1,104 nucleotides of DNA from Naegleria gruberi (taxonomy: Eukaryota), in the NCBI GenBank assembly GCA_000004985.1, contig GG739559.1. One strand, 5' to 3'. The translations under genes and the position numbers were made by a program. Positions 108 to 410 of the stretch are shown piece by piece; the first letter of the stretch is position 1; each line of letters starts with the position of its first letter. Below the pieces are notes generated by a model. The model saw only the letters and a program-made list of their open reading frames with translations, did no database searches and was not told where the DNA came from.

Positions 108-217
108 AGAATATGTTGGTTACTGATTGTTTATAAGGACTTTTTCAGTTATAAATCTGGAGTATATCATCACGTTTCTGGAAGAATGGTTGGTGCACAT
201 GCCATCAAGATTGTTGG
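108..217 (+). CDS. Cathepsin B-like (papain family C1) cysteine peptidase, internal exon carrying the active-site His region; 5' boundary uncertain and the gene continues upstream of the window
   Basis: Reading the frame whose codons begin at positions divisible by 3 (open from 108) gives [37 protein letters not shown]. This matches the cathepsin B block ...[32 protein letters not shown], including the GxHAI(R/K)I(L/V)GWG signature around the catalytic His. Read without splicing, the frame hits a stop at 252-254. Confidence 0.75.
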
Positions 218-265
218 GTATGTTTTTTTATATTGTTGCAAAATTGTGAAATAACTCTATAATAG
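218..265 (+). other. Spliceosomal intron 1 (48 nt), GTATGT...TAG
   Basis: It begins with GTATGT exactly where cathepsin homology breaks (after ..IVG). It ends ...ATAG immediately before homology resumes (GWGVD...). The length is 3n and it contains an in-frame TAA. A possible branch point is ATAAC about 12 nt before the AG. Confidence 0.6.
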
Positions 266-327
266 ATGGGGAGTTGATTCTGCTTCAAAACTTCCTTATT
301 GGATTTGTGCTAATTCATGGGGAGAAG
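266..327 (+). CDS. Cathepsin B-like cysteine peptidase exon (catalytic Asn/Trp region)
   Basis: Translates with a split Gly codon gg|a as (G)[20 protein letters not shown]. This matches cathepsin B WGVENGTPYWLVANSWN(T/E)DWG. The NSW motif contains the papain-family catalytic Asn. Confidence 0.7.
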
Positions 328-384
328 GTTTGTTTTCTATTTTATTGTCGTTTATCAAGTATTAATCAAAATGTTTGAAACAAG
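328..384 (+). other. Putative intron 2 (57 nt), GTTTGT...CAAG
   Basis: The unspliced frame reads ...WGEGLFSILLSFIKY* with a stop at 363-365. Splicing g|GTTTGT...ACAAG|at restores ...NSWGE-DWG..., which is the conserved spacing of NSWGxDWG. The length is 3n. Support is weaker than for intron 1 because only a 3-residue match follows the junction. Confidence 0.35.
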
Positions 385-410
385 ATTGGGGACTTGAAAA
401 CAGAATGTAA
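385..410 (+). CDS. Cathepsin B-like peptidase, putative terminal exon (DWGLENRM*), stop TAA 408-410
   Basis: After proposed intron 2 the frame reads DWGLENRM then TAA. The expected C-terminal GYFRI...CGIE segment is not found in any frame downstream, so the gene looks truncated (see findings). Confidence 0.35.

Follow-up and report, generated by a model that had tools for sequence, protein, structure and literature searches.

A probable cathepsin B pseudogene fragment on a small unplaced scaffold of Naegleria gruberi

In a 1104-bp window of the Naegleria gruberi draft genome, we identified a ~270-bp island of cathepsin-derived DNA (129-399) that is cut at both ends and from which the catalytic-Cys half and the last 23-30 residues are absent. 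By its sequence, the island derives from a genuine heterolobosean cathepsin B gene of the Naegleria/Willaertia clade, and the stretch from 129 to ~399 is probably a non-functional internal fragment of such a gene, either a partial-duplicate pseudogene or a relic. The initial annotation had described a peptidase gene truncated at its C terminus right after NSWGEDWG. This loss is real, but it is only half of the matter: the 5' side is cut too, within the window, which had been missed. Since homology stops at both 129 and ~399, the cathepsin sequence is an island and not a gene merely missing its tail.

The window has a GC content of 35% and contains three features, namely a papain-family coding fragment in frame +3, a minus-strand tRNA gene, and a 158-codon ORF for a DUF4116-repeat protein. 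It is a complete unplaced scaffold, and no wider contig exists: the DUF4116 ORF is 100% identical over its full length to EFC35217.1, whose sole carrier contig is 1104 bp long, and the window is therefore the entire scaffold. The existing JGI/NCBI annotation of this scaffold comprises the DUF4116 gene alone, and a protein search found no close match to the cathepsin fragment among N. gruberi proteins.

Identity and exon structure of the cathepsin fragment

The spliced product of the fragment matched PF00112 with 58.2 bits (E 1.6e-15; cut-off 20.7). Our own cathepsin B profile, built from 113 homologues and spanning 329 model positions, scored 61 bits against the unspliced sequence and 105 bits (E 2e-34) once both introns were removed, with the spliced product covering model positions 224-292 of 329. 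The profile scores of 58.2 and 105 bits uphold the earlier call of papain-family (cathepsin B-like) coding sequence in frame +3, but its start has to be moved to 129, as no cathepsin homology is found in 108-128. Across 129-399 there are no stops and no frameshifts, and the splice sites are intact. The spliced product retains the catalytic His (GAHAIK) and Asn (ANSWG), with the Gly before the catalytic His changed to Ala (GAHA vs GGHA). A six-frame profile search of the whole scaffold detected neither the catalytic-Cys region (QCGSCWAF) nor the N-terminal L domain, and gave no match beyond model positions 224-292 or in another frame. Likewise, no frame anywhere in the window encodes the xGYFxIxRGxxECGIE C-terminal strands in such a search, which extends to the full window the initial annotation's claim that no frame between 385 and 432 supplies this segment. 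Aligned with cathepsin B (MEROPS C1A, PF00112; e.g. S. mansoni SmCB1 3qsd, human 1huc/1gmy), the fragment spans residues ~176-229 out of ~254 in the mature enzymes, a stretch that holds two members of the catalytic triad, His and Asn. The ~175 residues before it and the final 25-28 are missing, and with them the catalytic Cys and the occluding loop; with so much of the N-terminal part gone, the fold of the fragment would tell little. Assignment to cathepsin B rests on the best matches being cathepsin B, the occluding-loop region being absent from the scaffold. An active enzyme, as far as the sequence tells, cannot be encoded by the fragment, which lacks both the catalytic-Cys region and the C-terminal strands; to list it among peptidase genes would be wrong.

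The fragment's nearest protein relatives, from W. magna, N. lovaniensis, and a metagenomic heterolobosean-like gene (P0001, locus L001), share 76-78% identity with it across ~55 residues. Sequence comparison places the fragment in a putative clade with N. lovaniensis C9374_006227, N. gruberi NAEGRDRAFT_66115, and W. magna ABK040_005201. The W. magna gene (KAL9656436.1; P0086, locus L004) shows 76% identity over 54 aligned residues and shares with the window both introns at identical positions and phases, as well as the absence of an intron between DF.S and YKSG. Unlike the window, it has a complete last exon (WGINGYFWVLRGHGECGIGKLVWSGKPDL*) and an uninterrupted exon upstream of VYKDF that encodes ...KENGPVQLAMG. 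N. lovaniensis C9374_006227 (KAG2381843.1; P0075, L003) and its contig-end duplicate C9374_008313 (P0003, L002) reach 78% identity, and C9374_006227 has the intron after NSWGx in the same phase as the window. In contrast to the window, C9374_006227 is full-length (318 aa, ending ...GFFWILRGVEECGIGRDVWTGYV*), carries an intron between DFMS and YKSG, and has none at IVG|WG. Within N. gruberi itself, where paralogues were compared as protein models, NAEGRDRAFT_66115 (EFC45858.1; P0122) bears the same clade signature (CNGG, AVYRD, WGLDGYFWILRGHNECGFGK..GKPAL) and includes a 16-residue segment identical to the window at 14 of 16 positions. It lies at a different locus, on a 507-kb scaffold, reads VYRDLF...HHVT where the fragment reads VYKDFF...HHVS, and, unlike the fragment, possesses the N-terminal catalytic half and the C-terminal strands.

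Several gene models of these relatives deserve comment in their own right. The NAEGRDRAFT_66115 model jumps to WGLDGYFWILRG and omits ~35 residues with the catalytic His and Asn. Because two small introns flank the omitted stretch both in W. magna and in the window, two short exons have probably been passed over in the model, an annotation error. The N. lovaniensis locus L002 (PYSW02000033.1, 12 kb) repeats the cathepsin B 3' end and the downstream genes of L003 (PYSW02000026.1, 614 kb); it is probably a haplotig or redundant contig, which would explain the 'partial' protein C9374_008313. The W. magna model P0086 (L004 6001-6989, 254 aa, starting MVHSNSEVMDKD) has no signal peptide or propeptide when compared with its relatives, and its 5' end may be mis-annotated.

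On the plus strand, the fragment comprises an exon piece with the catalytic His in GAHAIK (129-217, its left homology edge at 129 set by DNA identity to W. magna and profile alignment), an exon with the catalytic Asn in ANSW (266-327, from homologue and profile alignments), and the first 15 nt of the last exon (385-399), where (G)AT TGG GGA CTT GAA encodes DWGLE, as delimited by N. lovaniensis DNA and by the ends of the BLASTP and profile alignments. These are separated by two spliceosomal introns: intron 1 (218-265, 48 nt, GTATG...ATAG, GC 21%) is defined by its position and phase in W. magna, its composition, and the profile score, and intron 2 (328-384, 57 nt, GTTTG...ACAAG, GC 23%) by the W. 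magna and N. lovaniensis introns. Intron GC is 21-23% vs 35-40% in the exons. The splice junctions proposed initially, 217/266 (GG|gtatg...atag|A) and 327/385 (G|gtttg...caag|AT), proved right, since W. magna has introns at the same positions and phases and N. lovaniensis shares the second. Junction 1 of the W. magna gene reads AAA ATT GTT GG|gtaag...aaaag|A TGG GGT and junction 2 reads TGG GGC AAA G|gttag...aacag|AT TGG GGA ATT AAT GGA TAC; the N. lovaniensis intron matching intron 2 reads GGA CCA T|gtaag...catag|CT TGG GGA ATT GAT GGA. The extra Gly (IVG-G-WG) reported at junction 1 came from a miscount: across the junction, GG|A TGG GGA GTT encodes the canonical KIVGWGV, so that the spliced product reads KIVGWGVD, and W. 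magna is spliced at this same point.

The unspliced frame does read NSWGEGLFSILLSFIKY*, as described before, and tblastn aligned its NSWGEGLFSIL with DGFFWIL. We regard this read-through of intron 2 as a chance likeness in T-rich sequence and reject it, because two relatives have an intron at this position and the acceptor is followed by DWGL. An alternative intron at 92-148, which at 57 nt would keep the frame, has GT..AG ends, and lies close to the N. lovaniensis DFMS|YKSG intron, was likewise rejected, as it would remove VYKDFFS, which is in frame and perfectly conserved.

The two edges of the homology

On the left, homology ends sharply at 129. In an ungapped anchored comparison, DNA identity to W. 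magna was 76% at 129-217 and 34% at 1-128, against a null of 28 +/- 4% from other registers, and a base-by-base comparison with three relatives (W. magna, N. lovaniensis, and L001) likewise showed homology stopping upstream of 129. A frameshift-tolerant, right-anchored protein-DNA alignment of 1-128 against eight homologues gave scores of 0-1, no better than shuffled DNA for the four that were shuffle-tested. No AG acceptor stands directly before 129. The AT-rich stretch at 99-128 (plus strand), read from the sequence and from the anchored DNA comparison, carries TGA TAA TAA in frame at 99-107, and TGA TAA TAA AGA ATA TGT stands where the conserved NGPVQAAF motif is found in relatives. In W. 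magna, the exon with VYKDFYSYKSG continues unbroken upstream through FYQAKSARKLEGMLDIMTDLKENGPVQLAMG, and the sequence N-terminal of VYKDFF is missing from the fragment. The first in-frame ATG after the stops lies at 186, and any product would be without the catalytic Cys and the whole L domain. An apparent upstream likeness (FMKA...LEN...I to YKA..LEN..IM, with possible frameshifted +1/+2 matches) was discarded, being unsupported by the profile search, the anchored identity, and the frameshift-tolerant dynamic programming compared with shuffles.

The right edge falls at ~399. The DNA of the last exon, TTGGGGACTTGA, is identical to N. lovaniensis TTGGGGAATTGA at 11 of 12 positions. After position 399, the last of the GAA codon, the sequence goes on AAC AGA ATG TAA AAAAAA in the window and GGA TTC TTT TGG ATT TTA AGA GGA in N. 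lovaniensis. Every BLASTP alignment stops at DWGL(E) with 23-26 subject residues remaining, and solved cathepsin B chains (SmCB1 3qsd, human 1huc/1gmy, and others) have 25-28 more residues; all relatives and solved structures together run 23-30 residues past the DWGLE point. The last exon measures 26 nt in the window vs 92 nt in W. magna, 66 nt or 22 codons less. The spliced frame ends DWGLENRM*, as first reported, with its stop at 409-411. The non-homologous tail AAC AGA ATG TAA (NRM*; 400-411, plus strand), read from the sequence, does not significantly resemble the remainder of the last exon in the relatives. The TAA at 409-411 lies inside an A8 run that is one of three oligo-T tracts flanking the 3' end of the minus-strand tRNA. 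The earlier count of only 21 nt before the tRNA terminator needs adjusting, since the gap between the stop and the tRNA 3' end is 19-20 nt (412-430/431) and the stop itself overlaps the distal oligo-T tract.

The neighbouring tRNA and DUF4116 genes

As the initial annotation had it, a tRNA gene (432-520, minus strand) and a DUF4116 ORF (615-1091, plus strand) follow the cathepsin fragment. The tRNA gene scored 58.5 bits against RF00005 (gathering score 29) with a 19-nt anticodon-loop insertion. ARAGORN called it Thr(TGT) with a 17-nt intron in the anticodon loop and a pre-tRNA of 89 nt, which gives a tRNA-Thr(UGU) gene with its intron at ~468-484, on the 3' side of the anticodon. A-box- and B-box-like sequences can be read directly in the gene. 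Its 3' flank (410-431, minus strand, read from the sequence) contains T-runs, a TTT after the discriminator, a TTTT, and a T8, which in plus-strand coordinates lie at 429-431, 421-424, and 410-417. RNA polymerase III terminates at oligo-T as a general rule, and these runs are likely its termination region. On its sequence features, the tRNA-Thr gene looks like a normal nuclear Pol III gene.

The DUF4116 ORF matched PF13475 with 97.8 bits (cut-off 24.9) in four stretches. It corresponds to the 158-aa DUF4116-repeat protein gene NAEGRDRAFT_55032 (identical to EFC35217.1 / XP_002667961.1) and is a separate gene, no part of the cathepsin fragment. This four-repeat protein is almost an orphan: in a word-indexed search of 5.8 billion clusters, the only other match was a 31%-identical metagenomic protein (P0074). 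Neither a tRNA gene nor a DUF4116 gene was found near the W. magna or N. lovaniensis cathepsin loci, where the neighbours differ, and the juxtaposition is therefore not ancestral for the functional gene of the clade.

A-rich direct repeats surround the tRNA gene, one pair at 405-425/529-549 (17 of 21 positions identical) and another at 421-430/612-621 (an exact 10-mer, AAAATGACAA). As target-site duplications they were rejected, since low-complexity A-runs this long are to be expected in AT-rich DNA, where they probably arose by chance. Frame +3 holds not only the cathepsin exons but also the DUF4116 ORF and both introns, whose lengths of 48 and 57 nt are multiples of 3; with TAA/TAG taken as sense, it is open at 102-1091, about 330 codons. 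We judged the shared frame to be a coincidence because the probability that ~100 non-coding codons contain no TGA is roughly 0.15. A ciliate code (TAA/TAG = Gln), under which frame +3 would be open at ~102-1091, is out, as Naegleria uses the standard code and the open stretch would take in the tRNA gene and the AT-rich introns.

Origin and meaning of the fragment

Two features of an unprocessed pseudogene are present: two introns are retained at orthologous positions, and there are disabling lesions, namely the breaks at 129 and ~399 and the in-frame TGA TAA TAA. N. gruberi is reported to have 35 C01 cathepsins and, among them, three or more expansions of cathepsin B (bioRxiv 10.1101/2020.01.16.908186). 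Probably a piece of one gene in this enlarged family was copied, or it remained after a rearrangement or deletion; the ...DWGLENRM* ending would then come from reading on into unrelated AT-rich sequence, the neighbouring tRNA-Thr gene's 3' flank, and the fragment would be without enzymatic function. Of the options raised initially, the best fit is a pseudogene or decaying paralogue within a multigene cathepsin B family, with both ends missing and the N. gruberi family expanded. An expressed truncated isoform, also proposed then, could not be an active peptidase, given the lack of a catalytic-Cys region and the TGA TAA TAA at 99-107. The retained part is free of internal lesions and 76-78% identical to functional relatives, so either the copy is a recent one or the breaks are artefactual, products of a low-coverage scaffold.

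This last possibility, that an assembly or cloning artefact joined pieces of an intact cathepsin B paralogue to unrelated tRNA-Thr/DUF4116 DNA on a low-coverage scaffold and that the truncation is absent from the genome, gains from the window being a whole 1104-bp unplaced scaffold, from the pristine state of the fragment, and from the lack of an independent copy of the junction in public metagenome contigs. Chimeras and poor read ends are common among tiny scaffolds of Sanger draft assemblies. Exact scans of those metagenome contigs for the junction and the tRNA 5' exon gave 0 matches, but N. gruberi is unlikely to be represented there anyway. The fragment also differs from NAEGRDRAFT_66115 at several residues and is thus not simply that locus mis-joined. 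The breaks at 129 and ~399 need two chimeric junctions within 270 bp, and because two independent junctions so close together are hard to obtain from a single chimeric clone, we hold an artefact to be unlikely. Also conceivable is an internal deletion of 64-66 nt in the last exon of a resident gene that kept its natural stop and 3' UTR, with the tRNA as the original downstream neighbour. In its favour, the last exon falls short of that in W. magna by exactly 66 nt (22 codons), the tail GAAAAC-AGA-ATGTAA looks like the GAAAACCAGATTTGTAA, encoding GKPDL*, that closes the W. magna exon, and NAEGRDRAFT_66115 likewise ends GKPAL. However, the tail similarity is not above shuffled controls and the sharp 5' break at 129 is left unexplained, so such a deletion seems improbable, and even if true it would be a sub-variant of the pseudogene reading.

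An intact but spread-out gene, with its 5' and 3' exons on other scaffolds and joined through long introns, the 3' one hosting the tRNA and DUF4116 genes, could draw on a GT at 407-408 (AT|GTAAAA) as a possible donor and on the scaffold ending 13 nt past the DUF4116 stop. Yet the W. magna and N. lovaniensis orthologues are intronless at both breaks, with the last exon and the exon upstream of VYKDF continuous, the missing AG directly before 129 leaves no acceptor there, and homology is gone by ~399, before the only candidate donor. Introns here and in the two orthologues are ~45-160 nt long, and one of >700 nt with two genes inside would be exceptional; we consider this arrangement very improbable. 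Nothing in the window speaks for the further intron to a more distant exon that was among the options raised initially. There is only the slimmest chance that the fragment is alive, whether as the central exons of a scattered gene with the tRNA and DUF4116 genes inside its last intron, or through a ~40-aa spliced peptide from the ATG at 186 that would contain the His/Asn strand region and might have a regulatory or decoy role.

Under the preferred reading of a pseudogene fragment, what is new here is a previously unannotated example of a very well-known type. For curation, the sequence is best annotated as a pseudogene fragment and not as a truncated peptidase, and the scaffold treated with caution. 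Where a gene family expands within a lineage, pseudogenes and gene fragments are to be expected along with it, and this one carries little biological weight; its conserved intron positions help to mend cathepsin B gene models in Naegleria, such as that of NAEGRDRAFT_66115.
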